Source: an uncultured Pseudomonadota bacterium
Lineage (GTDB): Bacteria; CALINM01
Assembly (NCBI GenBank): GCA_964540515.1
Contig: CAZIMS010000010.1
Span: 6,395 to 70,394, forward strand
Reading direction: 5' to 3'
Length of the DNA stretch: 64,000 bases
Shown here: one piece after another, positions 32,693 through 58,277 of the stretch
Layout: every line of letters starts with the position of its first letter
How positions within the stretch are numbered: position 1 is the stretch's first letter
Program-made: the position numbers and the translations under genes
Notes under the pieces: model-generated
Told to the model about the DNA's origin: nothing
The model's input: the letters and a program-made list of their open reading frames with translations, nothing else
The model's database searches: none

Positions 32693-33544
32693 CTAATTTT
32701 GAAAAACTTTTTTAGGAATTCTTGCATTTATCTTATAGTTTTTAAAGTTTACCTCAATCTTTCTTTGTTCTTCTGGTATATCTACACCTTCAGTATATCT
32801 AATTTGTCGAGAGGGTAGATAATATTTTCCAACTTTTGTAAACTCTGTTTTAAAACTACTCTTTAAGGAACCGTCATTAGCTAAAAGATTTATCTCCTCT
32901 ATATATTTTTTGCCTTCCAGCTCAATATATCTAATAGAAAGATCAACAACAACTGAGTTTATTTGATCTTTTTCGTATATCAAGCTCATGCCCTCTAGTA
33001 ACGATTCTTTAGTATTAAACAATATCTCAATATTTTTTATATTTTTTGTTGGAAGTGGTAAGCCTGTTTTAAAAAAAAGTTGACCTATATCTTTTTTTTC
33101 TTTAAAAGAGATTTGAACCCTCTTTATATCTTTATCTTTTGATACAGAAATTTCTGCCTCTTTAAGCAAGGCTTCTCTCTCTTTCTTCATATCCATCGGT
33201 AGAAAAAAACATTTTAGTTCTAATGCAAACTGACTTGACATCCTTTTTGCTTGTTCTTTCATATAGGGGAAAACCTCCTTACCTTCAACCCTAATTACCA
33301 TACCCTTTTTTTTATGCCAATACTTTCTTAAGATAGGTTTTTTAGGTCTATCAAAATCTTCTGGCATTCCAGAGGTCATTTTTTTCATAATATTTTCAAA
33401 CTGCATGGTTTCTACATCACAAATATAACTTTTAATATCTCCTAAACATATATTAGTAGCTTTTTCTATATCAGATAAGGGGGAACCAAAGGAAATTGTA
33501 GTGTAAAACAGCAAGAATAGAGTAATAAGAGTAATTTTTCTCAT
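32693..33544 (-). CDS. exported hypothetical protein
   Basis: Likely start ATG 33544 (SD GGAGG) giving signal peptide MRKITLITLFLLFYTTISFG; beta-rich; no family recognised. Confidence 0.6.
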   Translation of the reverse strand: MRKITLITLFLLFYTTISFGSPLSDIEKATNICLGDIKSYICDVETMQFENIMKKMTSGMPEDFDRPKKPILRKYWHKKKGMVIRVEGKEVFPYMKEQAKRMSSQFALELKCFFLPMDMKKEREALLKEAEISVSKDKDIKRVQISFKEKKDIGQLFFKTGLPLPTKNIKNIEILFNTKESLLEGMSLIYEKDQINSVVVDLSIRYIELEGKKYIEEINLLANDGSLKSSFKTEFTKVGKYYLPSRQIRYTEGVDIPEEQRKIEVNFKNYKINARIPKKVFQN

Positions 33545-33611
33545 AAAAACCTCCTTGAGTCTTTTAATGAAAATATATCTTAGAACTTTAATTTTGTAAA
33601 GTAAGGGAAGG

Positions 33612-34988
33612 CTATTTATCTTTACTAAGAAAACCAAATTTTTTCATTCTATATCTCATAGCATCAACACCTATATTTAAAAGCCTTGCAGCCTTTGACT
33701 GATTACCTTTAGCCATTGCAAGGGCCTGTTTTAACAACTCTCTCTCAACCTCTTCAATATCAATACCAGTCTCTGGCAGCTTAATATCGGATCTGTCTGA
33801 TGGTTGACGAGATGAAGCAGATATTATCTCCAAAGGTAATCTTTCAACCATTATCTGGTCTCTATCTTCAAAAATCATTGCCCTTTCTATAGTATTTTTA
33901 AGCTCCCTTACATTACCAGGCCAATCATAAAGAAGAATCATCTTTTTGGCGATAGGGGAAAAACTTTTTATATTTTTTTTAAATTCTTTATTGAACTGAT
34001 TTATAAAAAACGTTGCGAGTTCTAATATATCATCCTTCCTCTCTCTGAGAGGTGGTACATAGATAGGTACTACTTTTATCCTATAGTATAAATCTTCTCT
34101 GAATTTTTCCTCTTTAACAAGTTTTTTTAAATTTTTATTGGTTGCTGCTATTAACTGAACATCTAATTTAATATCAACAAGCCCACCAAGCCTTCTTACC
34201 GTTCTATCCTCAAGGAATCTAAGAAGTTTAGCCTGAAGAGACATTGGCATATCACCAATCTCATCTAAAAATAATACACCACCGTCTGCAAACTCAATAA
34301 GACCTTCTTTGCTAGACTTTGCATCAGTAAAGGCTCCTTTCTCATAACCAAAAAGCTCAGACTCTAGTAAATTTTCGGGTAAAGATGCACAGTTTATGGC
34401 AATAAATGGTTTATTACTCCTTCGCCCTTCAGTGTGAATTGCCCTTGCAATCAATTCCTTACCTACACCACTTTCTCCTTCCACCAAAACTACCTTAACA
34501 TCAGCAGAAGAAACCCTTTTGATCATGGCTTTGACTTCATTTATCTCTTTACTTATTCCTACAATAGCATTTAACCCATAATTAAATTTATTCTCTTTTC
34601 TGTAATAGTTTAGCTCAGACTGATTTTTTGAAAATTCAATAGCTTTATTAACTATTATTAGAAATTCATCTGAAGAAAAAGGTTTTGTTAAATAATCATA
34701 GGCTCCTAATTTCATCGCCTTTACCGCTGTTTCTATACTACCGTAGGCTGTTATCACAATTACTGGTGTCTCTGGATGTCTCTCTTTTATCATCTGAAGC
34801 ATCTCTAACCCAGTGATATGTGGCATCATCAAATCTACTAATACAAGATCATACTTTGCTAACTCAAGTAGCTTTATTGCTTCCTTTGATGAGCTAGTTG
34901 CTGTTACTTTAAAACCTTGCTTCTCTAACTCAATTGTTATCATATCAAGTATTAGTTTCTCATCATCAACTACAAGTATATTAGCCAT
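33612..34988 (-). CDS. sigma54-dependent response regulator (NtrC family)
   Basis: ILVVDDE, DLVLVDLMMP, GESGVGKE, GAFTDA, WPGNVRELKN, HTH. Confidence 0.92.
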   Translation of the reverse strand: MANILVVDDEKLILDMITIELEKQGFKVTATSSSKEAIKLLELAKYDLVLVDLMMPHITGLEMLQMIKERHPETPVIVITAYGSIETAVKAMKLGAYDYLTKPFSSDEFLIIVNKAIEFSKNQSELNYYRKENKFNYGLNAIVGISKEINEVKAMIKRVSSADVKVVLVEGESGVGKELIARAIHTEGRRSNKPFIAINCASLPENLLESELFGYEKGAFTDAKSSKEGLIEFADGGVLFLDEIGDMPMSLQAKLLRFLEDRTVRRLGGLVDIKLDVQLIAATNKNLKKLVKEEKFREDLYYRIKVVPIYVPPLRERKDDILELATFFINQFNKEFKKNIKSFSPIAKKMILLYDWPGNVRELKNTIERAMIFEDRDQIMVERLPLEIISASSRQPSDRSDIKLPETGIDIEEVERELLKQALAMAKGNQSKAARLLNIGVDAMRYRMKKFGFLSKDK

Positions 34989-35002
34989 AAAATCTCCTAA
35001 CC

Positions 35003-36315: not shown

Positions 36316-36379
36316 TTATTTATGCCTATAACTCATATTATTGGCAGTAATCATATTATTATCAATTTTTTGTTTATCA

Positions 36380-38668
36380 CTATCTAATATCTATTATAGC
36401 ACCACTACTTCTTAATGTGTAAACCTTACCATTCATTAGTCTTACCTTGACGCTGGAGAGGCTAACTGCTTCAATATTCAACCCTTTATTTCTACCTTTT
36501 AACAAAATTCTACCTACTGAGACATTAGGCGGTAGTTCATCGTCAAATCTACCGTATATCTTAAAGATACCACCCTTTTGATCAAAATTTACTTTATAAA
36601 TATCGTTATCACTTCTTTTTAAATCTTCTTCTAAAAACTTAGTGGCCTCTACAAAGGCCCCATTAAAAGTCCCTGAAATCTCAAACTCAACTATGTCATC
36701 TACACCAAAAATAATTAAGTCAACTCCAAACTCCTCACCTACTGCTGCTGATTCAGGACCAATTGCTATGGCGTAAGCATTCTCACCACTAATCTGTCCT
36801 TCTACCTTACCTGTTATTGTTTCTCTTCTCTGACTTGCCTCATCAATTTCCTGACTTTCTATAACAGATCTCAACATAGGTTTTGCAGAAAGTCTATCCT
36901 CTGTACCAGACCAGATATTGGTTAGGTCAGCCGTAGGATATATCACCCCTTTTGTAATTCTCGGAGTTATAGATACAAATATATCAGCCTGATCTATTTT
37001 ATTAGTGTAGCTTGTAAATAGTGAACCTATTATTGGTATATCGCTCAAGAAGGCTATACCTGACCTTGCCCTTTCCAATCTATTCTGAATTAACCCACCT
37101 AAAACTGTGGTCTCTCCATCTCTCACCCTTAAAGTAGTCTTTGCGTTTCTTGTGCCTATCCTATAGACTGTTGTTCCATTTAGTGTTTTTGACTCACTTA
37201 CAATGTTACTAACTTCTGCCTCTATCTTTAACTCAACCTCATCATTTGAGAGTATCTTTGGCTCTACATTAAACTTAACACCTACATCAACATATTGAAC
37301 ATTCTCTGACCTCTGGTCAGCGCCGCTAACAGTAACAGTTATAACAGGCACTCTGTCACCCACGAGAACTTGAGATTTGCCACCGTCAAGAGTTTTTATC
37401 TGAGGGTTTGCCAAAGTCTTAGTTACACCGTTCTGCTTAAGAAAATTTATAGTAATATAGGGCAACGTAAATAGTATGTTTCTATTTATCTTTGCTATCT
37501 CAAGGTCTCTTATAGTAAGAAGGGTATCGCCAGTTCTTACGGAAACATTAGAGTTTTCTACTATCGAACTTGGATTTCTCCCTTTTCCAAAGCCTGCTCC
37601 TATTGAGTAGGGGTTGAAATCCACTCCTAATCTCTCCAAATCATTTCTATTAACCTCAACAAACTCTAGATCAAGCAACACTTCAGCTTTAGCCATGTCG
37701 TTTGCTTGAATAATTTTCTCAGCAAGCTCAAGACTATCTAAGTCTGCCCTAACTATTATAGAGTTTGTGTCCTCATTAACAAAAATCTGCCTTGCTTCTA
37801 TCAAATTTCTCAATGTATTTATCACCTTCTTTGCATCGGCATACTTCAAAAAGAAGGTTCTAATATAATATTCTTCATACTCTTTTCTCTTTTGTTTGTT
37901 GTCAGGATAGACAATGGCATTTTTTTGATTTATCACCTTTAAAGCCAATTTGTTTGTAAAAAGTAATAGCTCCAAGGCTTGCACAAAGGATGCCTCTTCA
38001 ATAAATATTGTAACTTTATTATCTCTTATCTGTTCATCAAAAAGAAAGTTTACGCCTGATAGTTTAGAAAGTATCTCAAAGACGTCTTTAATAGGAGCGT
38101 CTTTAAATTTTAGCGTAACTGGCTTGGCTGATTTAATACTAAGTTCATACTCAAGAGGGCTTTTTATACTCTCTTTTAATAACTTATCGGCAAGATTTTT
38201 CGCCTCTATAAGCTCTGTATTTAGTGAATAGGCCCTTCTTGCTTCATCTATGGCTTCTTTTATCTTGTTTGAAGCATAAAATGTCTTTGCCTTTTCTAAA
38301 CTTAAAAGGGCTTCTTTTTTTATATTAATCTCCTGCAAAAATTCAAAGGCTCTCTTAAAAGTGGGGTCCAATACAAGAACCAGATTAAACTCTTTCTCTG
38401 CCTCGTCAAGATTGCCCTCAGCTATAAGTTTCTTACCTTTATCAAAGTGCATGCGCGCAGAAGCCTCTTTTGCTCTTGTAAGTTTTATAACATACTCAAT
38501 ATCACCAGGACTTTCCTGCAAAGCCTTATTGTAATATGTTATGGCTTCGTCATATTTACCTTGATTCATAAGGGTTTCTGCTGTTCTATAGGCCCTGTAG
38601 GATGAACAAGAAAAAATTATGAAAACAAAGACAAATAAAAATAAAAACTTAATCTTTTTTCTCATCAT
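36380..38668 (-). CDS. secretin (GspD/PilQ-like) lipoprotein with N-terminal TPRs and C-terminal cohesin-like domain
   Basis: Lipobox FSC; TPR helices; STN and N domains; LANPQI, YVDVGVKF, DGETTVLGGL, DIPIIGSLF; C-terminal beta-sandwich. Confidence 0.88.
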   Translation of the reverse strand: MMRKKIKFLFLFVFVFIIFSCSSYRAYRTAETLMNQGKYDEAITYYNKALQESPGDIEYVIKLTRAKEASARMHFDKGKKLIAEGNLDEAEKEFNLVLVLDPTFKRAFEFLQEINIKKEALLSLEKAKTFYASNKIKEAIDEARRAYSLNTELIEAKNLADKLLKESIKSPLEYELSIKSAKPVTLKFKDAPIKDVFEILSKLSGVNFLFDEQIRDNKVTIFIEEASFVQALELLLFTNKLALKVINQKNAIVYPDNKQKRKEYEEYYIRTFFLKYADAKKVINTLRNLIEARQIFVNEDTNSIIVRADLDSLELAEKIIQANDMAKAEVLLDLEFVEVNRNDLERLGVDFNPYSIGAGFGKGRNPSSIVENSNVSVRTGDTLLTIRDLEIAKINRNILFTLPYITINFLKQNGVTKTLANPQIKTLDGGKSQVLVGDRVPVITVTVSGADQRSENVQYVDVGVKFNVEPKILSNDEVELKIEAEVSNIVSESKTLNGTTVYRIGTRNAKTTLRVRDGETTVLGGLIQNRLERARSGIAFLSDIPIIGSLFTSYTNKIDQADIFVSITPRITKGVIYPTADLTNIWSGTEDRLSAKPMLRSVIESQEIDEASQRRETITGKVEGQISGENAYAIAIGPESAAVGEEFGVDLIIFGVDDIVEFEISGTFNGAFVEATKFLEEDLKRSDNDIYKVNFDQKGGIFKIYGRFDDELPPNVSVGRILLKGRNKGLNIEAVSLSSVKVRLMNGKVYTLRSSGAIIDIR

Positions 38669-39221
38669 GTCCCTCTTTTTCTAATCTAAATATTCTTTTA
38701 TCACCTTTTGCATCACTAAGTATGACCTCGGTCTTACTAATTCTTTCAATTACATAGTCGGTATCAAAAACCCTATCCATCTTTTTAAACGATTTTATAT
38801 CATTCCCCTTCTTAAGAAAAGCAAACCTTTTTTCCTTTTTATCCATAATACCTAACAAAACAATATCATTCAACTTGTCTATCTTTATTTCCTGTTTTTT
38901 TTCTTCAACTATTTCTGGCTCCGTTGGCAAAAGGGGCAATGGTGGTGCAGGGATTGGTTCTGGTTTTTTTTCTTTCTGAACTTTCTGAGATGCACTCGTA
39001 TCCTTTATCAAATCAGCAAAAATATCTCTTATAAATTTATATCCAGAAATTTCAGGATATTTAACAGTCTTTTCTTGGGTAACTTTATTATCAATATTTG
39101 TGGTTTTGTCATCAACAGGAACAGCAAGCTTAATCTCCTTCTCCCCTGTGAAAAACACTCTATATAGGATAAGTACTGCCCACAACAGGACTAAAGTTAT
39201 TGCTATATTTTTTTTTGTCAT
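38649..39221 (-). CDS. PilP/GspC-position protein (TM anchor, Pro-rich linker)
   Basis: N-terminal TM, RDIF, PEPIPAPPLPLLP, VLLGIM..FAFL; lies between the PilO-like gene and the secretin. Confidence 0.55.
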   Translation of the reverse strand: MTKKNIAITLVLLWAVLILYRVFFTGEKEIKLAVPVDDKTTNIDNKVTQEKTVKYPEISGYKFIRDIFADLIKDTSASQKVQKEKKPEPIPAPPLPLLPTEPEIVEEKKQEIKIDKLNDIVLLGIMDKKEKRFAFLKKGNDIKSFKKMDRVFDTDYVIERISKTEVILSDAKGDKRIFRLEKEGHDEKKD

Positions 39222-39222
39222 A

Positions 39223-39723
39223 TTAATTTATGCCCTTCAGAAAGGTAATAATAGTAATAGCCCCACTAAGTATATCATTACCTTTCTGAATTTTAAGACT
39301 ATCAATTATTATAAAATGAGAGCCACTTTCCAGCTCATACAAAAACTTTTTTATGCTCTCATACTTACCCTCAACAGTAATATTCAAAGCAAGCTTAGTA
39401 ACGTTTAACTCCTTTCTCTCTTCAAAGTTGTAACTTATGGTCTTTATATCTACATTGCCCATAAAGGATTTTTCGAAGATATAATTAATTATTTTAGTAA
39501 AGTCCTCTTTTGCCCTTAATCTTTTTTCGTAATCACCTATCTTATCTTTTATCTCGTAAATGTCTTGAAAGGAAAGAAGTCTCTCCTTAGCCTTCTTATC
39601 TCTTAGCATCTTATAATCAGAAAGAGATTTTGAGAGTACCTCATCCTTGTGGGGGATATAAAAAAACCATAGCATGATATTAGCAATTATAAGAAAAAAA
39701 AACAAAATTAATAACTTTTTCAA
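39223..39723 (-). CDS. PilO/GspM-like protein
   Basis: TM helix, coiled coil, VEGKYESIKKFLYELE ferredoxin-like fold motif. Confidence 0.7.
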   Translation of the reverse strand: MKKLLILFFFLIIANIMLWFFYIPHKDEVLSKSLSDYKMLRDKKAKERLLSFQDIYEIKDKIGDYEKRLRAKEDFTKIINYIFEKSFMGNVDIKTISYNFEERKELNVTKLALNITVEGKYESIKKFLYELESGSHFIIIDSLKIQKGNDILSGAITIITFLKGIN

Positions 39724-40274
39724 TATAAGTCTCCTCTTATCTCAAAATCATTAACAAGTATCTTTTTTTCACCAAAGCGCTGAAAAGTCTGCTTTGTTAT
39801 CTCTGCTTTCTTAATATAATTTATACCCTGTAGCCTCTTTGAGAAAGCTACAGCGCTCTCAGGATTTAGGCTTTCACCAACTAAGATAAAGTTTTTTCTA
39901 ACAATGTCAATGTCTAAGCTCTTTAATACGGTCGCACTAACCATAATACTTTCTAAGTCCGTTAGAAAAAGCGTCACAAAAAACCTTTTTTCATAAATAT
40001 CTTTATAAAATCTAACCTTCTCATTAAGGACCTTTATTTCTTCATCAGATATGAATCTTCTTCTCTCCTTAATATTTTTTTCTATCATCTCTTCTATGGA
40101 AGTTTTTTCAATTTTTATCCTTTCTATCTCAGAAGAGATACTACCTACCCTATTAATGCCTAATATAAAAATTATTGCTAAAAAAATTACAGATATACCG
40201 TAAGCAACTCTTAAAGCATAAATTTGTTTTCTCTTGACCTTATTGGCTGAAGAAAAATTTATGCTATATTTCAT
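39720..40274 (-). CDS. PilN-like protein
   Basis: MKYSINFS start overlapping the upstream TGA (ATGA), TM helix, coiled coil, C-terminal LVGES..AVAFSKRL. Confidence 0.65.
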   Translation of the reverse strand: MKYSINFSSANKVKRKQIYALRVAYGISVIFLAIIFILGINRVGSISSEIERIKIEKTSIEEMIEKNIKERRRFISDEEIKVLNEKVRFYKDIYEKRFFVTLFLTDLESIMVSATVLKSLDIDIVRKNFILVGESLNPESAVAFSKRLQGINYIKKAEITKQTFQRFGEKKILVNDFEIRGDLY

Positions 40275-41131
40275 GATTCCAGTACCCCAAAACCACAAAT
40301 AAAGGAGGAGGTTTTCTTTTCAGAAGTTTTGTTGACGATCTTATCTTTTATATCAAGGACTCTAATTTTTTCGTTAAAATAGCTTTCTATCCCAATTCTC
40401 TCTAACTCATCAAAAATTACCATCTCCTCGGGCTCAAAATCACCAAACCTCTCCCTTACATTTGCCAACATGCTCATTGTCTCAAAATCTATTCTTGATA
40501 ACTCCAAAGCCCTATCTACCTCTCTAATAGAAATTGGCATATTCTCCTTAATGATAATTTGAGAGAAATATTTTTCCCTTAACCAATAGACAATCCCATT
40601 TTTTGGAAGAGATTTCTCAAAGACGTTCATAAAAGAGAGGGTTGGGGTTGTTATTATTGCAGGTTCTATACCTTTTTCATTTAAAATAACTTCTATAGAC
40701 TTTAAAAATCCCTTAAATGTGGCAACCACCAAGAGCTTTGTCATCTCTTTCTCTTTTTTCAAAGATTGTATTCTTATCTCAACATAATCTTTAGGTATAG
40801 GCATTATTTTTTGTATCTTCCACATTACAAACTCTAAAGCCTCATTCTCGTTTTTAGGATAGGCTTCCACCTCAATAAAGTGATACCAAGAGAGGGCATG
40901 GGGTAAGATAACATTACAATTTTTTAGCTTACAATGAGATTTCTCATTTAACTCTTCTATAGACTCCTTTAATACTCCATAGTTAAGCAATACATCATTT
41001 TCTGTTCTTTCATAAATTTTACTATCCTTTATTTTTACCTTATGTACATCCGAGATAGTATATAACCCCTTCTTAGCCTCTAAACATAAATGTAATAAAT
41101 GCTCACTATCAATCATCATAATGCTATTCAT
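40271..41131 (-). CDS. PilM/GspL-like cytoplasmic actin-fold protein
   Basis: Position after the ATPase; CNVILP, FVMWKIQKIMP, LLVVA, GIEPAII pattern. Confidence 0.6.
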   Translation of the reverse strand: MNSIMMIDSEHLLHLCLEAKKGLYTISDVHKVKIKDSKIYERTENDVLLNYGVLKESIEELNEKSHCKLKNCNVILPHALSWYHFIEVEAYPKNENEALEFVMWKIQKIMPIPKDYVEIRIQSLKKEKEMTKLLVVATFKGFLKSIEVILNEKGIEPAIITTPTLSFMNVFEKSLPKNGIVYWLREKYFSQIIIKENMPISIREVDRALELSRIDFETMSMLANVRERFGDFEPEEMVIFDELERIGIESYFNEKIRVLDIKDKIVNKTSEKKTSSFICGFGVLES

Positions 41132-41134
41132 AAC

Positions 41135-42841
41135 TTATTCCACAAAGGTTACCCTGTTTATCTCTTTCATAGTTGTAACTCCTTCAAAGACCTTTTTTAA
41201 AGCTGCTTCTCTTAAAAAGACAGTCCCTAATTCTTTAGCTTTTTTCTTCAAAACTTGAATAGGGGCCTTCTCGATTATAAGCTCCTTTATCTCATCATTC
41301 AATACTAAAACCTCTCCAATGGCAATTCTACCTTTATACCCTGTATAGGAACACTCAGAGCAACCATAACCCTCATAAAAAACATAATCTTTATATCTAT
41401 CCTCATTCAGTCCTGAAAGTTTAAGAAAATCTGGAACATAGTTAACAGGTTTTTTACAGTTATGACAAAGTTCTCTTATAAGTCTCTGAGCCAAGACACA
41501 GTTTAGAGAGGATACAAAGTTATAAGGAGATATTCCCATATTGAGAAATCTTGCTATAACGTCGAAAATATTGTTGGCGTGGACTGTTGTAAAGACTAAA
41601 TGACCAGTAAGAGCAGACTGAATGGCAATCTGTGCAGTCTCTAAATCCCTAATCTCTCCAACCATAATCTTGTCAGGGTCATGTCTTAATATTGACCTCA
41701 AACCCCTTGCAAAGGTTAAACCCTTTTTCTCATTAACAGGTATCTGAACGACTCCCTTGAGCTGATATTCAACAGGATCTTCAATAGTTACTATCTTATC
41801 CTCTCCAGAGTTTATCTCACTAATGGCTGCATAAAGAGTTGTTGTCTTACCAGAACCAGTGGGGCCCGTAACAAGTATCATTCCATAGGGCTCTCTAATC
41901 TTTTTTCTTAGGGCTTCTACAACTTGATTATCAAATCCTAAATAATCAAGTCGCAAATTTTTCAGATCAATCATAATACTCTCTTTATCAAGCACCCTTA
42001 TTACCGCATCTTCTCCAAAAATCGTAGGTAATATAGATACCCTGAAATCAACGTACTTTGCCTTAATCTTAAGTTTGAATCTTCCGTCCTGAGGTATTCT
42101 CTGTTCGGATATATCAAGGTCAGACATAACCTTTATTCTTGATATAATATTACTTTGATATTTCAGATCAATAGGACCTAAGACCTTCTGAAGGATACCA
42201 TCAATCCTAAAACGGACATAAACACCCTCTTGAGAAGATTCTATATGTATATCGCTGGCTCTCTTGTGCAAGGCATCGTATATAGCCGTATCGATGAGTT
42301 TAACTACTGGACTTGTATCTTCCGTGAGCTTTTCTAAGGAAAGTACTTCTTCTCCCTGATCTGTCTCTTTTACCAATAAAACCTTAAAGTCTTCCGTTAC
42401 ATCTTCAAGAATCTTTGATGAGCTCTCAATCTTAGCTAAGGTCTTATCAATCTTGCTTTTTGGTGATACGATTATCTCAATAGGTTTACCTAAAATCAGG
42501 TTAAGCTCATCAATAGTCAAAACCTTAATTGGGTCAGAAAAGGCAAAATAATATTTTCCATTTTCTTCTTTTAGAAAGATTATCTGATACTTTCGCATTA
42601 AATCTATTGATACACCTGAAGGAAGTTTTTCCGGTAGGGTGTAGCGAGAGAGGTCATCATATGGCAATCTAAGCTGTTCCGCCAGTGACTTATACAAATC
42701 TTCTTCTGTTATAAAACCAAGGTTAATTAATATTGTACCTAACTTCTCTTTACTTTTTTTAGCCTCATCGAGTCCTCTCTTTATTTGTTCTTCCGTTAAT
42801 AAACCCTTTTCTAAGAGAATCTCGCCTATCTTTTTTCTCAA
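41135..42841 (-). CDS. gspE: GspE/PilB assembly ATPase
   Basis: KKIGEILLEKG, ASDIHIE, GPTGSGKTTTLY, TIEDPVEY, LRHDPDKIMVGEIRD, CxxC...CxxC. Confidence 0.92.
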   Translation of the reverse strand: MRKKIGEILLEKGLLTEEQIKRGLDEAKKSKEKLGTILINLGFITEEDLYKSLAEQLRLPYDDLSRYTLPEKLPSGVSIDLMRKYQIIFLKEENGKYYFAFSDPIKVLTIDELNLILGKPIEIIVSPKSKIDKTLAKIESSSKILEDVTEDFKVLLVKETDQGEEVLSLEKLTEDTSPVVKLIDTAIYDALHKRASDIHIESSQEGVYVRFRIDGILQKVLGPIDLKYQSNIISRIKVMSDLDISEQRIPQDGRFKLKIKAKYVDFRVSILPTIFGEDAVIRVLDKESIMIDLKNLRLDYLGFDNQVVEALRKKIREPYGMILVTGPTGSGKTTTLYAAISEINSGEDKIVTIEDPVEYQLKGVVQIPVNEKKGLTFARGLRSILRHDPDKIMVGEIRDLETAQIAIQSALTGHLVFTTVHANNIFDVIARFLNMGISPYNFVSSLNCVLAQRLIRELCHNCKKPVNYVPDFLKLSGLNEDRYKDYVFYEGYGCSECSYTGYKGRIAIGEVLVLNDEIKELIIEKAPIQVLKKKAKELGTVFLREAALKKVFEGVTTMKEINRVTFVE

Positions 42842-42843
42842 AA

Positions 42844-44046
42844 TTACCCTCCCACCGCTCCTGCAAGACTAAAAATTGGTAAATACATTGCTATAACAAT
42901 CACTCCAACTATAAATCCCATAATTATCATAAGAGCTGGCTCAACAAGAGTAGTTATCATCGTTAAGGAATCTACTACAAGATTATCATAATACTCTGCT
43001 ACCTCGTCAAGCATTTCCCAAAGAGAGCCTGTCCCTTCACCAGATTTTATTAGCCTAAGAGCGATAGAAGGAAAGAGGTTGGTATCCTCAAGGGCTAAAG
43101 AGAGGGAGTTACCTTCCTCCACAAGTTTGGTTGCCTTTTTTATCTTTTCAGAAAAACTGGTGTTAGTACCCACATTAGCAGTAATCTTTAAAGCACTAAC
43201 TAAAGGAATGCCTCCCTTTATAATTGCAGAAAGAGTTCTCGCAAAGTTTGAAACAAGATAATTTCTATAGATATTTGAAACGAAAGGAGTTTTAAGCTTT
43301 AGATCATCAAGAAAAAGTCTGCCCTTAAAGGTACTCTTGACTCTGCTTATGACAAAAATTAATAAGACGAGAGCTAAAACTAAAAAAGGTAGTATAACCT
43401 TAAAAATATTTGTCACTTTTAAAAGAATAATTGTTGCTAAAGGCAATTCTACATTTGATTCTAAATAAATTTTACTAAAATTAGGTATTACATAGGTGAA
43501 CAAAAATATTACTGCCGCCACTATAATACATAAAACCATTATGGGGTAAACAGAGGCTGAGACAATCTTTCTACGCATCTCCTCCGTCTTTTTCATAAAT
43601 ACTTGATATTCTTTAAGTCTTTCAACAAGATTACCACCCTTTTCTCCTGCCTTCACGTTTGAGATATAAAGAAGTGGAAAGTACTCAGGAAATTTTTCCA
43701 TTGCTTCTGATAAAGAATATCCCTGGGCAATATCTCTCTTTATACTCTCCAAAACTCTGTAAAAACTCTTTTTTTGTGGCACCTTTTCTATAATAATCTC
43801 TAAAGCTTTGACGAGAGGCTGACCTGCTTTGAGTAAGATATAAAGCTCCTGATTAAATGTTAGGAAATCTCTTATATTGAATCTTCTTTTAGATATAGTA
43901 GATACTGTATAAACTTCTGTGATGTCAAGGAGGAGATATCCATCTTTTGATACAAGATACTTTATCTCTTCGAGAGAATCGGCAAAATATTTTATATAAA
44001 AAACTTTACCAGATTCATCAGCAACCTTACAGTTATAGTATGGCAT
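42844..44046 (-). CDS. gspF: GspF/PilC inner-membrane platform protein
   Basis: LLKAGQPL, GEKGGNL, SASVYP, GEGTGSL, LVEPALMI, MYLPIF. Confidence 0.92.
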   Translation of the reverse strand: MPYYNCKVADESGKVFYIKYFADSLEEIKYLVSKDGYLLLDITEVYTVSTISKRRFNIRDFLTFNQELYILLKAGQPLVKALEIIIEKVPQKKSFYRVLESIKRDIAQGYSLSEAMEKFPEYFPLLYISNVKAGEKGGNLVERLKEYQVFMKKTEEMRRKIVSASVYPIMVLCIIVAAVIFLFTYVIPNFSKIYLESNVELPLATIILLKVTNIFKVILPFLVLALVLLIFVISRVKSTFKGRLFLDDLKLKTPFVSNIYRNYLVSNFARTLSAIIKGGIPLVSALKITANVGTNTSFSEKIKKATKLVEEGNSLSLALEDTNLFPSIALRLIKSGEGTGSLWEMLDEVAEYYDNLVVDSLTMITTLVEPALMIIMGFIVGVIVIAMYLPIFSLAGAVGG

Positions 44047-44048
44047 AT

Positions 44049-44429
44049 TTATTTATTATGACAGGAAAAACAGATTTTGTTTATATCCATCCTTAAAAGT
44101 CTTTTCTCAAAATCTTTATTGCCCTTAGGATGAACATTATGACAGGTATAAGCACAGGTAATCTTTCCTTCTTCATCAAGTGGTAGATTCTCCCTGTTTA
44201 ACCTTGTCTTTACCCCAACTTTATGGGAAGGATGCACATCAGGATGACAAGATTCACAGACCCTGTTAGGTCCATCTTTAAGAGCTTTAGGATTATTTAA
44301 ATCAAGATGACAGTTGTTACAATTGTCTTTTGAAAGATGAAAGTTCTCAGCTAAGGAAAGGCCAACAAAACTATAAAAAAATAAGAAAACCAATAAAGAT
44401 TTAAACACCTTATCCCTCTCACAAAACAA
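44049..44429 (-). CDS. small exported multiheme cytochrome c (3 CxxCH + 1 CX3CH)
   Basis: CNNCH, CESCH, CAYTCH, CFSCH; signal peptide; GTG at 44408 with SD GAGG may be the true start. Confidence 0.88.
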   Translation of the reverse strand: MFCERDKVFKSLLVFLFFYSFVGLSLAENFHLSKDNCNNCHLDLNNPKALKDGPNRVCESCHPDVHPSHKVGVKTRLNRENLPLDEEGKITCAYTCHNVHPKGNKDFEKRLLRMDINKICFSCHNK

Positions 44430-44456
44430 ACCAGTATATTTTACAGAATATTAATC

Positions 44457-45545
44457 TTACTTTGCATAGACCTTAGGACTATGTTCTACATCATGACATT
44501 TAAGATAACAACTACCTCTAAATATCCCCTCGGACTTAAACTCGATTTTATTTGTTGTTGTCTCTCTTTTCACATAATCAGGGTTAAACTCTATCAAAAA
44601 TTTATTCTTTTCAGAGCCGTGTGGGCTGTGACAGGTGCTACAAGAGGTGCCTTTCCAGTTTCTTACCTTGACACCTTCTATATGTTCTCTGTGATAGGGG
44701 AAGCTTTCATTACCCAAGATGCTCTCTTTCCTATGACAGCTATAACATAAATCGTAGTTAGGAATAAGTGTCTCTTCTTTTTTTGTATAGGGTAATATAA
44801 GGATATAATCATTGTTTGAGCCATGCACCCCTTCAACTCTTTTTCCACCCTTTGTATCACTACCATGACAACTACTACATTTAATCATAGTCTCATAGGT
44901 TATACCTTCTTTAAGACTCGGCAAATAATTGTTCTTTCCAACTGCCACAACAGGATGATATGAAGGGTTATTTGGATTAAACTCTCTTAGCTTATTTTTT
45001 TGATAAAAAGGCTTATTTGCGTCTGCTCCATGGCATTTAAAGCAGACTTCATACTCATAATAGGCCTTCTTGACAAACTTACCTTCTATATTAACACCAC
45101 TAACCCCCCAGTGAGGAACCTCTGGAATAGAATCATGAGGACTATGGCAATCAAGACACTCGCTATGTCTTGGCAAATCAGGGTTAGTTACAGGATAAAC
45201 TTCATTATATTTATGTAAACCCTTCCTTTCTACAGGATGTCTATAGGGTTTATCAAAATCGGCGGCCACATTTTTTGCATTTTTTATATTAAGCCTCATC
45301 TTTTCTAACTTTTTAGATGCCCTATGCTTAGGACCGTGACAGGTATAACATTGGACTTCTTCTTCGCTACCTGAGTATCTAATACCTGCGTGACAGGTTT
45401 TACAGCCTCCGGGGTTATTTTCCGATAAAAGATGGGTACCCTTTTTCGTTTGTACTAAAAATTCAATCTCTTCTCTAGTTAAAGAATAGGCATTTATTGC
45501 AAAGCTTAAGATAAATAGACCTGTAAAAAAAATTTTTATCATCAT
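44457..45545 (-). CDS. exported multiheme cytochrome c (7 CxxCH + 1 CX3CH)
   Basis: CKTCH, CYTCH, CLDCH, CFKCH, CSSCH, CYSCH, CSTCH, CYLKCH; signal peptide. Confidence 0.9.
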   Translation of the reverse strand: MMIKIFFTGLFILSFAINAYSLTREEIEFLVQTKKGTHLLSENNPGGCKTCHAGIRYSGSEEEVQCYTCHGPKHRASKKLEKMRLNIKNAKNVAADFDKPYRHPVERKGLHKYNEVYPVTNPDLPRHSECLDCHSPHDSIPEVPHWGVSGVNIEGKFVKKAYYEYEVCFKCHGADANKPFYQKNKLREFNPNNPSYHPVVAVGKNNYLPSLKEGITYETMIKCSSCHGSDTKGGKRVEGVHGSNNDYILILPYTKKEETLIPNYDLCYSCHRKESILGNESFPYHREHIEGVKVRNWKGTSCSTCHSPHGSEKNKFLIEFNPDYVKRETTTNKIEFKSEGIFRGSCYLKCHDVEHSPKVYAK

Positions 45546-45548
45546 TCT

Positions 45549-46403
45549 CTACCTATTGTGGCAATGATTACAAAAACCGTAGTTACTAGCGTTAAAGTGA
45601 GCACAGGACCAATTAGTAAAAGATATTCTCTCCCTCATAAATTTTCCATACTGATTATTATGTGGTTCATGACAAGTAGCGCATTGAATACCTGTGCCAT
45701 TAGGATTAGAACTGCCGTTATAACCTAAATAACCAGTAGGCCTTAAAGGATAAATGGGTTCTCCTGCAACACCATCTACACAATCTATGTTAGTACTTCC
45801 GGCAGTTAATCCATATTTTCCTGTTCCACATATATTATTAGTGCTATTTCTCAACTTCCAAACATCACCGTCGGCAATCTTTTTTGCTATTAAGGCATCT
45901 GTTACAGCTATTGATATAGGATGGGCTGGATGATTTCCTGTGGGATCATTAAAATCAGAACCAAAGTAAATATCAGCAGTGGGAAGAATCTTGCCTTGTA
46001 TATCAACATAGTTAGTGCCTACAACATGTATATTCCCTTTAATCATATCGCCTACTGATACGGTTCCATCATGGCAGGAAAGACAGAGTTTTGAGCCTTT
46101 ATCGGGTTGATTTCTAGGGCTTCTAAGTGTAGCAGAACTAAAGGTGCGATATGTTGCCGTTGATAACTTATGTCCCCATAAAGGTGTGTCTATAGCACCG
46201 TGAGGAACATGACAGAACTTACATATCTGATTTTCATCAACAGCTTTTACCTTAACAACAGGTCTGTCAGTAGAGGTAGTAGCCCAGCTTGCAAGATTAT
46301 GAGGGCTTTTAGAAATAGGAGCGTTCTTTATATCTACAGCCTTAATTGCGGTAGGTATAAGGAAAAGAAGTATCAAGATTGCATATATCAATATATTTCT
46401 CAA
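45549..46403 (-). CDS. OmcE-like exported tetraheme cytochrome c
   Basis: Signal peptide; SPHNL, QICKFCHVPH, PLW, SKLCLSCHDG, HPIS, CATCHEPH, FCNHCHNR in the order and spacing I recall for Geobacter OmcE. Confidence 0.8.
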   Translation of the reverse strand: MRNILIYAILILLFLIPTAIKAVDIKNAPISKSPHNLASWATTSTDRPVVKVKAVDENQICKFCHVPHGAIDTPLWGHKLSTATYRTFSSATLRSPRNQPDKGSKLCLSCHDGTVSVGDMIKGNIHVVGTNYVDIQGKILPTADIYFGSDFNDPTGNHPAHPISIAVTDALIAKKIADGDVWKLRNSTNNICGTGKYGLTAGSTNIDCVDGVAGEPIYPLRPTGYLGYNGSSNPNGTGIQCATCHEPHNNQYGKFMRERISFTNWSCAHFNASNYGFCNHCHNR

Positions 46404-47455
46404 CTATCTTCTCCAAGATATTTTATAATTTGAAGTCTTCTATTCAAACTATCTGTAACATATATATAGTTTTTGTTATCAATAAATATGCCCGAGGGCA
46501 AGTTAAACTGACCTGGAAAAACTCCCTCTTCCCCTAATACAGCAAGCAGTTTCCCCTCCTTACTAAAGACCTGTATAGAATCTTGGAGGCTATCAACTAC
46601 ATATATATTGCCATCTTTATCGGAGCATACACCTTTAGGTCTTTCTAAATTACCATCTCCTTTTCCCATCTGACCTATTGAACCCATGTATTTTCCATTT
46701 AAATCAAAGATTTGTATTCTAAAATTCATACTATCAGTTACATAAAGCTCTTCTTTATTATCATTTACGTAAATATGAGTGGGGTAATTAAACTCGACCT
46801 TTTCTTCACCTCTTGCCCCTATCACTTTAATAGTATCAAAATTTTTATTTAAAACTCTCACATTATGATTAATGGTATCTACTACATAAAATCTCTTTTT
46901 CTTCTCAGAATAGGATATACCACTGGGTCTCCAATTAGTCTCTTTTAATGTTTTACTATCTACAGGATAACCATTTTTATCGTAAATTACAATTCTCTTT
47001 TTTTCAGGATCTGCAACATAGATATAGCCTTCATCATCAACTACTACAGAGGTTGGATAAAATAGTTTATCGCCATCCTTAGTGTCTCTTAAAAAATCTA
47101 CAGTCCCCTTATTAAGATCAAAAACAATAACAGATAATACACCCTGATCAACCACATAAATCCTTTCATCTTTAGCAAAAACCGCATAGGGCTTAACAAA
47201 TTCTATAAAGGGGGATGTCTCTTCTCCTAAAAGCCATTTAAGAAACCTGTCAGTCTTGGTCTCCTTTATCAGATCTTTTTTAAAGTCATTGGCGGTATTT
47301 ATAATTTTTATTAACTCATATCTTGGCTTTGAAGGTGGCGCAGGCCATTTAAGCCCTATAGTGCTATTATAAAAAGATGAAGGGTCACTTACTCCTATAT
47401 GATAAGAACAACCCACTAAAAGTAGAAAGACTAAGAAAAACTTAAGCCTACTCAT
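46400..47455 (-). CDS. NHL-repeat (6-bladed beta-propeller) lipoprotein
   Basis: Lipobox LVGC; repeats FxxPxxIxV, IYVxDxxNxRIQIF. Confidence 0.9.
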   Translation of the reverse strand: MSRLKFFLVFLLLVGCSYHIGVSDPSSFYNSTIGLKWPAPPSKPRYELIKIINTANDFKKDLIKETKTDRFLKWLLGEETSPFIEFVKPYAVFAKDERIYVVDQGVLSVIVFDLNKGTVDFLRDTKDGDKLFYPTSVVVDDEGYIYVADPEKKRIVIYDKNGYPVDSKTLKETNWRPSGISYSEKKKRFYVVDTINHNVRVLNKNFDTIKVIGARGEEKVEFNYPTHIYVNDNKEELYVTDSMNFRIQIFDLNGKYMGSIGQMGKGDGNLERPKGVCSDKDGNIYVVDSLQDSIQVFSKEGKLLAVLGEEGVFPGQFNLPSGIFIDNKNYIYVTDSLNRRLQIIKYLGEDS

Positions 47456-52319: not shown

Positions 52320-55300
52320 ATGATAGCTGTTAAGATTAAAAAAACGATACTATTTTTTATATTAATTTTAAACATTTCTACTACGTCATATGCCTTAACA
52401 ATAACGCCAAATACCTGGAATATTATAGGTCTTGATAGCAATTCCCCAGCAACAGGTCCAAACCAATTTCCAGTCGGAGCAAAAATTTGTGGAGGTACTC
52501 CCAATACCAATCAAGTAGTTACCTTTAACTGGGATACAGGTGGCACAGACAACGGTACATACATCTATCTGAGACCAGGTTCTCAAAACCCAATTACAAT
52601 CACATATGGCCCAGATGGATGTGCAGATGCCTTTTTTGAAGTAGAGGTTGCAAAAACATCTTTGGCCTTTGACAAAACAAGAAGGTATTACATCTCAGCA
52701 GGAAGTTATATTTCTCCAAGACCAAGAGAGCTTTATGTAGAACGTCTTGTTTCTCAAGGTAGAAACTATATTACCGATATTAGATTAAATGGGGTCTCTA
52801 TACCTGCAGGTGGCACTATGAACCTAATGGAAGGCAAAACCTATACAATCCAATTATATGGGGGTACTGCTACTCAAGGATATAATCAGTTTCAGATGTT
52901 TATTAACTTTTCTAATACTATATTTCAAATACTTTCTGTCTCAATTAACTATTCAGCGAATAACTCCCCCTATGTTTCTACTACTGGACATAAATATCTC
53001 TATGCCAATGCTTGTAAATGGGAAAATGACCCCAATAGTCCTAATTATCTTTCCTGCTTAGAAGACTGGAAATCTGGGGGAAGTAATGTAGTTACTACCT
53101 ATGTAGTTAAAATATTGAGCGGAGCAGGAAGCGCTGAGACACTAAGAACTCTACTTCAAGACTTTTCAGGTAGTAGTTTCCACTACAACTCCGATTACTC
53201 TACAAGCGCAAGAATTGCAAATATTCTTGGACCTGCATCTATAACAATTAATAAAAGCTTTACTCCTAAAACAATCATGCCTTATGATACATCAACTCTT
53301 ACTTTTACAATTAACAACCCAACCCCGGAAACTGTTTCAGGTGTTAATTTTTCAGATAGCTTTCCATCAGGCCTAACTGTTGCAGCCCCCCTAATGTAAC
53401 TTATAACGGATGTGGTGCTGGTAGCTTTTCACCTTCACTCAACGGTGGAGAAACATCCCTATACTTTTCTAATGGAACAATTAATGCAAATAGTTCTTGT
53501 GTAATAACATTAAATGTTACATCTTCTTCTGAGGGAACTTATAATAACACCACTAACAACCTATATATTGATAATACTGTAAACACTGGAAATACCGGCA
53601 ATGACTCACTAATAGTAAGTACAATCCCCCCTCCTCCTTCTTCATGTGGTACACGACAGACAATGGCTACATGGACAATGCCTACAACCGGGCAAGGAAG
53701 CGGAGGTCCACCACCACCTTATACAACAAAGGCTCCTGATGTTGCAACCGCTACTGCCTCAAGCACTGGAGGAACTTCTATAATAAGTACAACACAAGGT
53801 AATCCTGTGAACTCATGGGGTCTTAATAACTGGCCATCATCAGGAACCTTAACACCACCAGCAAATCCTACTACTTACTACGAGTTTACTGTAGATTCAA
53901 GTAATTATGGTGGTGTTCAGATATCATTTAGTTATTTTCTGCCAGGTGGTGACTGGGCAAATCCCGGAGATAACTATGTGTATGTTTATTCAAAAGCAGA
54001 TAATGGGCCTTATAATTCAGGTAGTGGATTTTCTGCTACAAAAGGAAGTTGGACAACCCAAACTTATACCGCTACTACCACAGGTACAAGCACCACTACC
54101 TTTAGAATAAGCTTTGCAGGCTCAAGGAATGCCACAGTCTATGCTTACTTAGACAATATAACCATCTCAGGTTGCCAACGACCAAATCCACCAAACATTT
54201 CCAAGTTATTCTCACCAAATATCATTCAATTAAATGGCACTTCAACTCTTACCTTTACCATTACAAATCCTAATCCTGCTGCCTCACTTAGTGGGATCTC
54301 TTTTACAGACATCTTGCCATCGGGGCTCCACATTGGTAACTCAACCACAACCGTATGTAATGGTGGAACTTTAACTACAAACTCCTCTACAAAGACAATA
54401 TCATTAAGTAACGCATCTTTAGCAGGAGGATCAAGTTGTAATTTTAGTGTTACTGTTACCGGAACTACCGCAGGTCAACATACAAATATAAGTACAAATG
54501 TTACGGCAACCCAAAGCGGTCCTAATAATGGAGGCCCAAACATTGGTTATGCCTATGCTGTTTTGACAGTCTTAGCACCACCTGATTTTTCGAAGGCTTT
54601 TTCTCCAACATCAATATACACTGGTAATACCTCAACCCTTACTTTTACTATAAATAACCCAAATCTATATAACTCCTTTACGAATATTGCCTTTACTGAT
54701 ACCTTACCAGCTGGACTTTCAGTTGGAAACGGAACCTATTCTGTTTGCGGTGGCACAAATAACCTTACCACTAATGCTGCCACAAGGCAAATTACCTTAA
54801 CAGGGGGAACTCTTGCCGCTAACAGCGGATGTAATTTTAGTGTTATAATTATAGGTTCAACAGCTGGTAGTTACACTAATACCTCTGGCAATATTACTGC
54901 CACATCAGGATCAGTTAATCTTACAGGAGGAAATGCTGTAGCAAGTATTACGGTTATTAACAGGGTTTCATCTCTTGACTTAAAAAAACAAGTATCGTCA
55001 AACCCAACAGGACCATGGACAAGTTATACACCAGTCGCTCCAGGGGGTAATGTTTATTACAGATTTAAAGTTTATAACAGTGGAGATACAGAATTATATG
55101 ACATTTGGATTACTGAAGTTTCAGGCTCTATAAATCCAACCTGTTCATTTCCAAACCCTTTACTGCCCGGCGATGATGCATATTGTTATTCCTCTGCTGT
55201 AACAGCCATTACTGGTATCCATACAAATACTGCCTATGCAAGTGGTAGATATCCAAGCGGTGGTACAATCTATAACTCTGCAAACTCTTCAGCTACCTAT

Positions 55301-56719
55301 GCAACTACAGGACTTACTCTTACAAAAAATGCCGATGAAACTAATTATAAAGTAATTGGTGAGACTATCCATTACAACTACACAGTTACTAACTCGGGTT
55401 ATGCAGTTCTTTCTGGTTATGTGTCTGTAACTGACAATAAAACATCTGTATCCTGTCCAGCAATAAATACTATTGGAGATTTAGATAACTATTTTGACCC
55501 CGGTGAATCTATTATCTGCGGTGCTACCTACAACATAACAAATGCTGATATCCTTGCAAAATCTTTAACAAATACAGCTCAAGCAAGTATAGGCGTAACT
55601 ACATCTAATAATGCGTCAAAGACCATAACCTTGGCTCCTGCGGACCTAACAGCAATAAAGAAAAATAATACAAACAATCAAGTAGTTGCAGGACATGCCT
55701 TTGACTGGACAATAATTGTTGCTAATGATACAAACGAAGGTTCTGCTCCTTTTTTAAACTCAGAAATTATCCTTTTAGACAATCTTCCCAATACAAATGT
55801 AAGCTATACCTTAGGCACTGTGAAAAAATCTGGAATTATTGGTAACATTAACTGTTCTCTTTCAACTGATACAATCACTTGCAGTGCCGATGGAAATGTG
55901 ATTATACCATCAAGATTACAAGGCACCATTGCTGTAACAAACAACAGCCCAAATATTGTAGGTACAGGGACAGCTTTTACCGCTGATTTATCAGTAGGCA
56001 GTATAATATTAATAAACAATGTTCCCTATACAGTCTTATCTATTGCAAATGACACCAATCTCACTCTATCATCAAACTATACCGGAGTTACGGCAAGTGG
56101 CATTATAATACCTGCCTCCTTTATTATTAACGTAACCACATCTGTTACACTACAGGCAATAGGTTCCCTAACCAATCCTAAAAGTGGAGGTGTCTGTAAG
56201 GTAGATCCAGATAGCCTTCTTTTGGAAACTAACGAAAGTAATAACGATTGTTATGATGCTGTTTCTGTAATAGTTATGCCAAGTATAACAGTTCTAAAAT
56301 CGGTTCAACCTTTTTCTGACCCTATAAATGGCATTACCAATCCCAAAACAATACCTGGTGGTGAGGTAATATATACCATATTAGTAATTAACTCTGGAGC
56401 TGGCTCTGTGGATAACGACAGCATAAATATGGAAGATCCAATACCAACAAATACTATTATGTGTGTATCAAACACTTGTTACAACCCACCTATCAGCTTT
56501 AGTTGTAGCACTACCCCTCCCTGCGGCCTTATCTTTAATCTTAGTAGCGACGTCACTTATTATGATGCAGGCAATAATGTTTACATACCTACACCTGACG
56601 CTGAAGGTTATGATCCTCTTGTAAGAAAGATAAAAATTAATCCAAAAGGAGTGTTAAATGGTTCTACTGGTCCCCCTCATCCTAATTTTAGCATAACCTT
56701 TAAGGTTAAGATACAATGA
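52320..56719 (+). pseudogene. large exported DUF11-repeat adhesin split by a 1-nt frameshift (1466 aa if restored)
   Basis: Track ORFs 52320-53399 and 53663-56719 join if the C6 run at 53386-53391 is C7 (VAAP-PNVTYNGCGAG...). The intervening frame is open. Repeated K-F.P..TSTLTFTI.NP...F.D.LP.GL Ig-like units. Confidence 0.8.
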
Positions 56720-57705: not shown

Positions 57706-57779
57706 GCTTTAGAGCTAAGAAATTTTAGATAAGAGTATTTTTAAAAAAAACACAGCTTATAAAAAAAGGAGGTGATTTC

Positions 57780-58265: not shown

Positions 58266-58277
58266 AAGGAGAAAAAA

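Follow-up and report, generated by a model that had tools for sequence, protein, structure and literature searches.

The 64,000-nucleotide (nt) stretch of contig CAZIMS010000010.1 from an uncultured pseudomonadotal bacterium that was analyzed here (hereinafter, the window) encodes, on the minus strand at positions 45549-46403, an OmcE-family tetraheme c-type cytochrome, related to the subunit of extracellular cytochrome filaments, within a co-directional gene cassette that also encodes a machine resembling a type II secretion system (T2SS). The range corresponds exactly to a single open reading frame (ORF) of 284 amino acids (aa), stop codon included, with a TTG start codon; a GGAG-type Shine-Dalgarno sequence (GGAGAAG) lies upstream, and the start codon and the stop codon of the preceding gene overlap over 4 nt (TTGA). 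The predicted protein begins with a signal peptide of the typical Sec type, MRNILIYAILILLFLIPTAIKA, followed by VD at the predicted cleavage site; it contains no lipobox cysteine, and residues 2-21 are helical in the AlphaFold2 (AF2) model. In all six frames of the window, only three ORFs contain at least two CxxCH motifs, these three are mutually adjacent, and 1936 database relatives of the four-motif protein are detectable at E <= 1e-3, so that a chance origin of this ORF can be dismissed. The nearest relatives are set apart as a group of their own, with 42-84% identity and scores of at least 186 bits, and the broader family scores at most 117 bits. This group includes a single metagenome-assembled genome (MAG; locus L004) among the GTDB species representatives, out of at least 568 OmcE-like matches; apparently, the protein belongs to a small clade that has no prior description.

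The OmcE-like nature of the protein, which the original prediction had proposed from the letters of the DNA, is well supported by sequence and structure comparison alike. When the single sequence was compared with PDB, the best match was the Geobacter sulfurreducens OmcE filament (7TFS, E = 5.9e-15), followed by 9YUQ (E = 1.2e-5), a 218-aa "putative multiheme cytochrome c" present in 16 chains that appears to be the Desulfuromonas soudanensis OmcE bundle of Petersen et al. (bioRxiv 10.1101/2025.10.22.684050). A profile derived from an alignment of 116 relatives, the same alignment that was used for the conservation counts and the AF2 model, matched both structures over the full length (7.6e-43 to 7TFS and 9.8e-30 to 9YUQ) and retrieved no other PDB entry with an E-value better than 1e-4. 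The AF2 model, in which hemes are absent, has a mean predicted local distance difference test score (pLDDT) of 70.9 and a predicted template modeling (TM) score of 0.69, and its sole PDB fold match in a Foldseek search was, again, 7TFS (E = 8.9e-8, prob 1.0; TM-score 0.47 by query and 0.62 normalized to the target; ~26% identity).

All four CxxCH motifs counted in the original prediction are present (Table 1), and their eight cysteines and four histidines are invariant across the 116 relatives. The same holds for the four histidines that had been singled out as possible distal ligands, within SPHNL, VPH, HPIS and EPH: these are H35, H68, H161 and H248, the non-motif histidines that are conserved in 116 of 116 sequences and are, accordingly, candidate distal heme ligands. 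A fifth histidine, H78, is 91% conserved but is replaced by Asn in Geobacter OmcE and so is not a ligand. The four distal histidines have been reported to be conserved across phyla in OmcE homologs (Petersen et al., bioRxiv 10.1101/2025.10.22.684050), and in OmcE, heme is ligated by a histidine across the subunit interface. By analogy, H35, which lies close to the mature N-terminus, is a candidate for the ligand that would be donated to the heme of the neighboring subunit, and we infer that the protein may polymerize into a nanowire.

The OmcE-like gene is the second in a cassette of 15-16 co-directional genes that extends over ~14.8 kb, from 47455 down to ~32693, with intergenic gaps of at most 64 nt or overlaps. 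The original prediction mentioned neither the strand nor this cassette, the feature that tells the most here. It is preceded by the gene of an NHL-repeat β-propeller lipoprotein, for which the PDB search returned only generic NHL propellers, and is followed by two genes for multiheme cytochromes of 362 and 126 aa, neither of which has a PDB sequence relative; the smaller of these is missing from the clade loci L001 and L085. After a gap of only 2 nt, there follow the genes for a GspF/PilC-type protein and an assembly ATPase and then three platform genes, the order of which is conserved in all clade loci. Among the latter, the 166-aa protein matches T2SSM_b (34 bits) and PilO (22.9 bits), the 192-aa protein gives a marginal PilN match (14.9 bits), and the 286-aa protein shows no Pfam match. 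The next gene, coding for a 190-aa protein, occupies the same position in the clade loci at 30-38% identity, and from its layout of transmembrane helix, Pro-rich linker and β domain it may be PilP/GspC-like. Then come the secretin and three prepilin-type genes, two of which contain the TIGR02532 prepilin N-methylation motif, with GspG as the best match of the 129-aa protein; the two GspG-like proteins show 65-82% identity in the clade loci. The last well-supported gene encodes a σ54-dependent response regulator, which, at 68-71% identity, also comes next to last of the pseudopilin genes in L086, L090 and L094. The overlapping gene for a 314-aa secreted protein has a 44%-identical homolog at the same position in L090 only and possibly is also part of the cassette. 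No candidate for a large unassigned β-barrel (porin) was found among the genes at 32693-47455 or in L001, L002, L084 and L085, the rest of the genome being outside the scope of this search. The 163 nt that lie upstream of the NHL gene contain no match to the σ54 promoter consensus (the window contains 32 matches, with 18.7 expected), and a scan of this AT-rich DNA for σ70 promoters and terminators remained at background (63 found, 59 expected).

The association between the cytochromes and the secretion genes is conserved. In all five close relatives that are located on long contigs (L001, L002, L004, L084 and L085), the gene order is the same through the pseudopilins, and the upstream flanks are all different, namely, histidine biosynthesis, phosphate transport, α-amylase and an ABC transporter, with glutamate synthase in the window. 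A broader set of 79 OmcE-like loci from GTDB species representatives (1.27 Mb, 61 loci with at least 6 kb downstream) yielded no T2SS components in any of the 79. The NHL gene lies directly upstream of the OmcE-like gene in 67 of these loci and in all clade loci, and 50 of the 79 have a 362-aa cytochrome homolog no more than 3 kb downstream. In the reverse test, metagenome contigs were searched with an alignment of the cassette GspF. Wherever the GspF identity was at least 61% and the contig reached upstream, cytochrome genes were present, in all eight cases (L086-L090, L092, L094 and L103); by contrast, in GspF relatives at 30-37% identity (L093, L096 and L101, with the ATPase at 56-57%), the order of the GspF, ATPase, platform and TPR-secretin genes is retained but none has cytochromes. 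Thus, the cassette is a conserved unit in which the cytochrome module and the machine are linked in both directions; a chance adjacency of the secretion genes was considered and rejected given this two-way linkage despite the differing flanks. Because the distant relatives of the machine share the gene order but lack cytochromes, the cytochrome module seems to be a later addition that joined a pre-existing type of machine. Across the cassette loci (L001, L002, L004 and L084-L094), identity is 44-52% for the OmcE-like protein, 58-65% for the eight-heme partner, 74-76% for the ATPase and 65-82% for the GspG-like proteins. The OmcE-like gene is thus the fastest evolving core gene of the cassette, a pattern that fits a surface-exposed, extracellular product. 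Translated searches (tblastn) with two unannotated proteins of 642 and 588 aa from upstream regions of Nitrospirae loci, used as porin queries, gave matches in 3-4 loci only, and these queries are too divergent for scoring the broader family.

Which class of machine the cassette encodes is less clear-cut than its conservation. According to Pfam and NCBIfam, a secretin, a GspE-type ATPase, a GspF platform protein and prepilin-type pseudopilins are encoded together. The N-terminal region of the ATPase (residues 4-56) matches NF053729 at 63.8 bits, with a cut-off of 38, as well as Pfam MshEN at 56.5 bits, and the protein is a predicted c-di-GMP-binding, MshE-type ATPase. A gene for a PAS-GGDEF diguanylate cyclase is located some 3.6 kb past the distal end of the cassette, at 28147-29049 on the plus strand, and a functional link between this enzyme and the MshEN ATPase is possible.

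An alternative that has to be considered is that the secretion-like genes encode a type IV pilus, whether for adhesion or as an "e-pilus", that is merely co-regulated with the cytochrome, the latter not being its cargo. The ATPase scores higher with PilB than with GspE, the platform resembles PilM/N/O, and the distant relatives that share the gene order do without cytochromes, all of which would be natural for a pilus. However, the two best conserved pilin-like proteins, at 129 and 163 aa, are short and have GspG as the best match, no retraction ATPase is encoded in the cassette, the two-way linkage is strict, with translational coupling at the junction between the cytochromes and GspF, and none of the clade loci examined has the canonical porin partner. 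Taken together, these features make the pilus explanation very improbable in our assessment. Since all the Gsp and Pil equivalog scores, including one of 146 bits for the secretin with PilQ, fall below the NCBIfam cut-offs, the machine is best called T2SS-like and unclassified.

Apart from the heme motifs, the protein contains three cysteines, C192 (NNICGTG), C208 (NIDCVDG) and C267 (WSCAH), and, as the original prediction stated, all of them are located in insertions: compared with OmcE, there are ~25 extra residues between positions 189 and 235 (OmcE 174-195) and 8-10 more before the last CxxCH. The prediction further held that disulfides staple these loops, perhaps for thermostability. For C192 and C208, an intraloop disulfide on a surface loop is plausible. 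The insertion at residues ~186-216, which is the most variable part of the protein among the close relatives, contains two cysteines in P0001-P0003, two at other positions in P0008, P0009 and P0011, two at yet other positions in P0010, P0012 and P0013, and none in P0004-P0007; not one clade member has a single cysteine there, and it is this pattern of pairs or nothing that makes a disulfide likely. Such pairs are ordinary in the family. Among the 116 relatives, 59 have no extra cysteines, 39 have 2, 4, 6 or 8, and the remainder have an odd number, so the C192/C208 pair as such is unremarkable. With respect to thermostability, the composition (IVYWREL 0.414-0.434, which translates to roughly 53-72 °C; (E+K)/(Q+H) ratio of 5.2) is compatible with a thermophile and hints at one but is not proof, the estimate being biased by the low GC content (34.9%).

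The stapling idea does not extend to C267. This residue is present in 13 of the 13 clade members and in none of the 103 other relatives, lies 11 residues upstream of the last CxxCH (12 in one member) and is the only non-heme cysteine in P0004-P0007, so it has no partner within the subunit. The count of extra cysteines is 1 or 3 in the clade and mostly even elsewhere. C267 is, then, an invariant, unpaired signature of the clade rather than a peculiarity of one gene, and it co-occurs with the T2SS-like cassette wherever the gene context is known. The suggestion that the odd cysteine links subunits fails for a homopolymer, there being no second conserved cysteine to complete the bond, and the suggestion that it serves as a heme ligand is unnecessary, four conserved distal histidines being already available. 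A place for C267 in an alternative heme-binding motif was rejected as well: there is no histidine immediately following it and no CXnCH that would spare the canonical motif.

Nevertheless, C267 could be functional in its own right, as an axial His/Cys heme ligand, as a covalent link to a partner, or as the site of a persulfide or other modification, with C192 and C208 unrelated to stability. The invariance of this unpaired residue at a fixed distance from heme motif 4, within a conserved F-x-N-x-S-C context, and its perfect co-occurrence with the cassette where the context is known are what one would expect of a functional site. Against this stand the complete bis-His ligation of all hemes that the invariant distal histidines can provide, the replacement of the following histidine (H269) by Asn in two members, the lack of a second conserved cysteine for a homotypic bond, and the modeling of the C267 region at pLDDT below 50, which permits no structural conclusion. 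We regard a dedicated function of C267 as tentative and somewhat unlikely. A more specific and considerably bolder proposal, which we deem improbable, is that of a self-contained nanowire export cassette in which the porin route has given way to a pseudopilus and secretin. C267 would then serve as an intramolecular cap that can be removed, in the form of a transient His/Cys ligand of the C-terminal heme, the one to which the next subunit later donates a histidine, and would keep periplasmic subunits monomeric up to their secretion; if true, this would explain why the cysteine and the cassette occur together wherever the context is known. In any case, mutagenesis would have a concrete target in this invariant unpaired cysteine near the C-terminal heme.

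The reading that we favor, and regard as reasonably probable, is that the protein is a Sec-exported tetraheme cytochrome of the OmcE family, with a lineage-variable insertion carrying a cysteine pair and an invariant C267, in a cassette where a T2SS-like machine has taken the place of the porin. Under this reading, the subunit would cross the inner membrane via Sec, as its signal peptide indicates, and presumably acquire four bis-His hemes in the periplasm. The translationally coupled NHL lipoprotein, given its near-universal synteny, might be an assembly or chaperone factor. The two-way gene linkage suggests that, with GspF/PilMNO as its platform and energy from the predicted c-di-GMP-binding ATPase, a GspG-type pseudopilus would push either the subunit or a growing filament out via the TPR-secretin. 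Outside the cell, homology with OmcE would imply head-to-tail stacking, with one conserved histidine completing the heme of the neighbor, and the eight-heme and four-heme partner cytochromes could feed electrons from the periplasm. The σ54 response regulator would control the expression of the cassette.

Several observations weigh against this reading. The NCBIfam scores of the machine components fall well short of the equivalog cut-offs (GspF 294 of 424, GspE 536 of 630, GspD 179 of 351, GspG 56 of 88.85 bits) and the ATPase scores 594 bits with PilB, more than with GspE, both below the equivalog cut-offs, so that a pilus-forming system rather than a T2SS stays within what the scores allow. 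Neither a prepilin peptidase nor GspH-K was recognized within the cassette. The confidence of the AF2 model is moderate and is low in both cysteine-bearing insertions (pLDDT below 50 at residues 194-203, the loop of the cysteine pair, and around C267). One group of the clade (P0008, P0009 and P0011) is known only from contigs shorter than 3 kb and offers no gene context. Membership in the family is no guarantee of filament formation. In three loci, from Planctomycetota, a Syntrophothermus MAG and Betaproteobacteria, single ORFs of 550, 614 and 848 aa with 11 CxxCH motifs each combine an OmcE-like domain with a seven-heme domain homologous to the 362-aa cytochrome; their occurrence in one ORF elsewhere implies that the OmcE-like and 362-aa proteins work in physical contact, and it raises doubt that all OmcE-like proteins polymerize. 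Finally, the physiological role of the Geobacter cytochrome filaments is itself disputed.

These points bear on a further alternative, namely, that the protein is a non-polymerizing tetraheme carrier, soluble or attached to the cell surface, that is exported by the T2SS-like machine, much as Shewanella brings MtrC and OmcA to its surface by a T2SS, and partners with the eight-heme cytochrome. The substrates of T2SS normally are folded monomers or small complexes; the fusions with the seven-heme domain, found in several phyla, suggest a heteromeric electron-transfer module; OmcE-like cytochromes are also reported from clusters of the porin-cytochrome style in Verrucomicrobiota and Acidobacteriota; and Petersen et al. 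consider only a subset of OmcE homologs to be likely nanowire formers. Conversely, both structurally characterized members of the family are filaments. Invariance extends to the C-terminal heme motif and to the four distal histidines, the N-terminal one included; within the clade, the N-terminal arm that leads from the cleavage site up to H35 shows strong conservation; and the protein is unfused and of OmcE size. On balance, we consider a non-polymerizing carrier to be rather unlikely and retain the OmcE-type filament subunit as the preferred interpretation.

The window contains other genes that could be of interest in their own right. At 52320-64000 on the plus strand, there are at least seven genes for large secreted repeat proteins (DUF11, DUF7933, DUF7507, DUF7927), the last of which runs off the window after at least 1229 aa and contains DUF11 as well as two OmpA domains; the occurrence of identical 16-mers at both 61513 and 62752 suggests internal repeats. 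This region looks like a cell-surface or adhesin locus and is unrelated in sequence to the cytochrome cassette. Two efflux pumps of the resistance-nodulation-division type and of AcrB-family size, 1084 and 1082 aa, are encoded on the minus strand at 4015-9834 and 18833-22081, with the Pfam check covering the first; the first pump is accompanied by two upstream partner genes, followed by a second pair of σ54 response regulator and histidine kinase at 9955-12455. A 381-aa ORF at 29594-30739 on the plus strand represents an unusual fusion of SfsA (OB and nuclease-like domain) with a C-terminal DUF123 (GIY-YIG-like) domain. An Rfam scan of the 64 kb detected no family at the gathering score.

Table 1. 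The OmcE-like cytochrome, its cassette and the fusion loci discussed in the text (positions refer to the window unless a locus is given)
Feature	Position	Strand	Remarks
OmcE-family tetraheme c-type cytochrome	45549..46403	-	284 aa; PDB sequence and fold matches
Sec signal peptide, residues 1-22	46338..46403	-	predicted cleavage between AIKA and VD; read from sequence
H35, mature residue 13, S-x-H-N-L motif	46299..46301	-	invariant 116/116; aligns with OmcE TKHDLS
Heme motif 1 CKFCH, residues 61-65	46209..46223	-	followed by distal His H68 (46200-46202)
Heme motif 2 CLSCH, residues 107-111	46071..46085	-	within invariant block CLSCHDGT
H161 (HPIS)	45921..45923	-	invariant distal His
Lineage-variable insertion, ~residues 186-216	45756..45848	-	C192 (45828-45830), C208 (45780-45782); inserted relative to OmcE
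Heme motif 3 CATCH, residues 241-245	45669..45683	-	followed by distal His H248 (45660-45662)
Clade-specific insertion, residues 261-277	45573..45623	-	F-x-N-[WYF]-S-C motif; C267 at 45603-45605
Heme motif 4 CNHCH, residues 278-282	45558..45572	-	two residues from the C-terminus
NHL six-bladed β-propeller lipoprotein, 351 aa, lipobox LLVGC, first cassette gene	46400..47455	-	Pfam NHL 90 bits
Multiheme cytochrome, 362 aa, 7 CxxCH and 1 CxxxCH, signal peptide	44457..45545	-	Pfam Paired_CXXCH_1, MtrC/MtrF II-IV domain
Small tetraheme cytochrome, 126 aa, 3 CxxCH and 1 CxxxCH, signal peptide or membrane anchor	44049..44429	-	motif count
GspF/PilC-type inner-membrane platform protein, 400 aa	42844..44046	-	Pfam T2SSF 178 bits
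GspE/PilB/MshE-type assembly ATPase, 568 aa	41135..42841	-	Pfam T2SSE 440 bits; N-terminal MshEN motif
Three platform genes: 286 aa (PilM/GspL-like by position only), 192 aa PilN-like, 166 aa PilO/GspM-like	39223..41131	-	
190-aa protein: N-terminal transmembrane helix, Pro-rich linker, small C-terminal β domain	38649..39221	-	no Pfam match
Outer-membrane secretin, 762 aa, N-terminal lipobox and TPR	36380..38668	-	Pfam Secretin 137 bits, Secretin_N, N0/STN, TPR
Three prepilin-type genes, 163, 129 and 155 aa	35003..36315	-	two GspG-like, with FT(L/I)xE after the cleavage-site G; third without Glu5
NtrC-type σ54-dependent response regulator, 458 aa	33612..34988	-	Pfam Response_reg, Sigma54_activat and HTH_8
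314-aa secreted protein	32693..33637	-	no significant Pfam match; overlaps regulator gene by 26 nt
Fusion locus, Phycisphaerales MAG	L015:10001-11653		
Fusion locus, Syntrophothermus MAG	L035:9950-11794		
Fusion locus, Betaproteobacteria MAG	L007:9998-12544		

The delivery of multiheme cytochromes by a T2SS is known from Shewanella, where the T2SS moves the heme-loaded decahemes MtrC and OmcA across the outer membrane to the cell surface. There, the T2SS is a general housekeeping system that is not encoded together with its cargo, and MtrC and OmcA, which as decaheme lipoproteins dock to a complex of the porin-cytochrome type, do not, unlike the cassette cytochrome, belong to the OmcE family. 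The closest characterized relative of the latter, G. sulfurreducens OmcE (GSU0618, 7TFS), has the same order of CxxCH motifs, the four distal histidines, a Sec signal peptide and a mostly coil fold, and its cluster likewise encodes a β-propeller lipoprotein and two multiheme cytochromes. The differences are the length, 284 compared with 232 aa, which is accounted for by the insertions with C192/C208 and C267, the presence of H78 where OmcE has Asn, and the lack of nearby glycosyltransferase genes in the cassette. For Petersen et al. (bioRxiv 10.1101/2025.10.22.684050), a minimal OmcE cluster comprises OmcE itself and a large β-barrel together with multiheme cytochromes and β-propeller lipoproteins, two of each; the cassette, by comparison, has one β-propeller gene instead of two and a T2SS-like set in place of the β-barrel. 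The survey of OmcE homologs in that work was limited to genes with a porin nearby, so the clade described here would have dropped out of it, and our full-text literature searches turned up no account of an OmcE-family gene that lies within a T2SS cassette. In D. soudanensis WTL, OmcE (DSOUD_2954; bundled antiparallel filaments, apparently 9YUQ) is a homologous tetraheme from the minimal, glycosylation-free type of cluster, and its surface loops are likewise lineage-specific and non-conserved (Petersen et al.); however, that cluster includes a porin and two β-propellers but no T2SS, and the protein has no equivalent of C267.

A common logic, in which a filament subunit is encoded with dedicated folding or secretion helpers and companion cytochromes, is shared with the OmcS/osc cluster of G. 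sulfurreducens (Shen et al. 2025, summarized in PMC13194489). OmcS, however, is a hexaheme without clear homology to the OmcE-like protein (profile E = 1.4e-4 over one motif only), and the secretion components proposed for the osc cluster, OscE/F/G, follow a porin-type model rather than a T2SS (PMC13194489). More generally, the path that cytochrome nanowires take in secretion and assembly is described as unresolved between a pseudopilus of the type IV pilus/T2SS kind (Gu et al. 2021) and a porin (Shen et al. 2025), both by Petersen et al. and in a 2025 review. The model of a PilA-N/PilA-C pseudopilus in Geobacter (Gu et al. 2021) likewise has a type IV filament/T2SS-like pseudopilus translocating nanowire subunits; it rests on mutant phenotypes, with the pil genes unlinked to omcE, omcS and omcZ. 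In contrast, the cassette described here links the cytochrome to a secretin, an ATPase and GspG-like pseudopilins of its own within one conserved operon. This strict operon linkage without a porin amounts to independent comparative evidence that the pseudopilus route can serve the OmcE family, and it bears on the question of how such filaments get across the outer membrane and are put together. With the subunit, helper, electron feeders, machine and regulator all packed into ~14.8 kb, the cassette should also be tractable for heterologous reconstruction and for the engineering of secreted conductive filaments.

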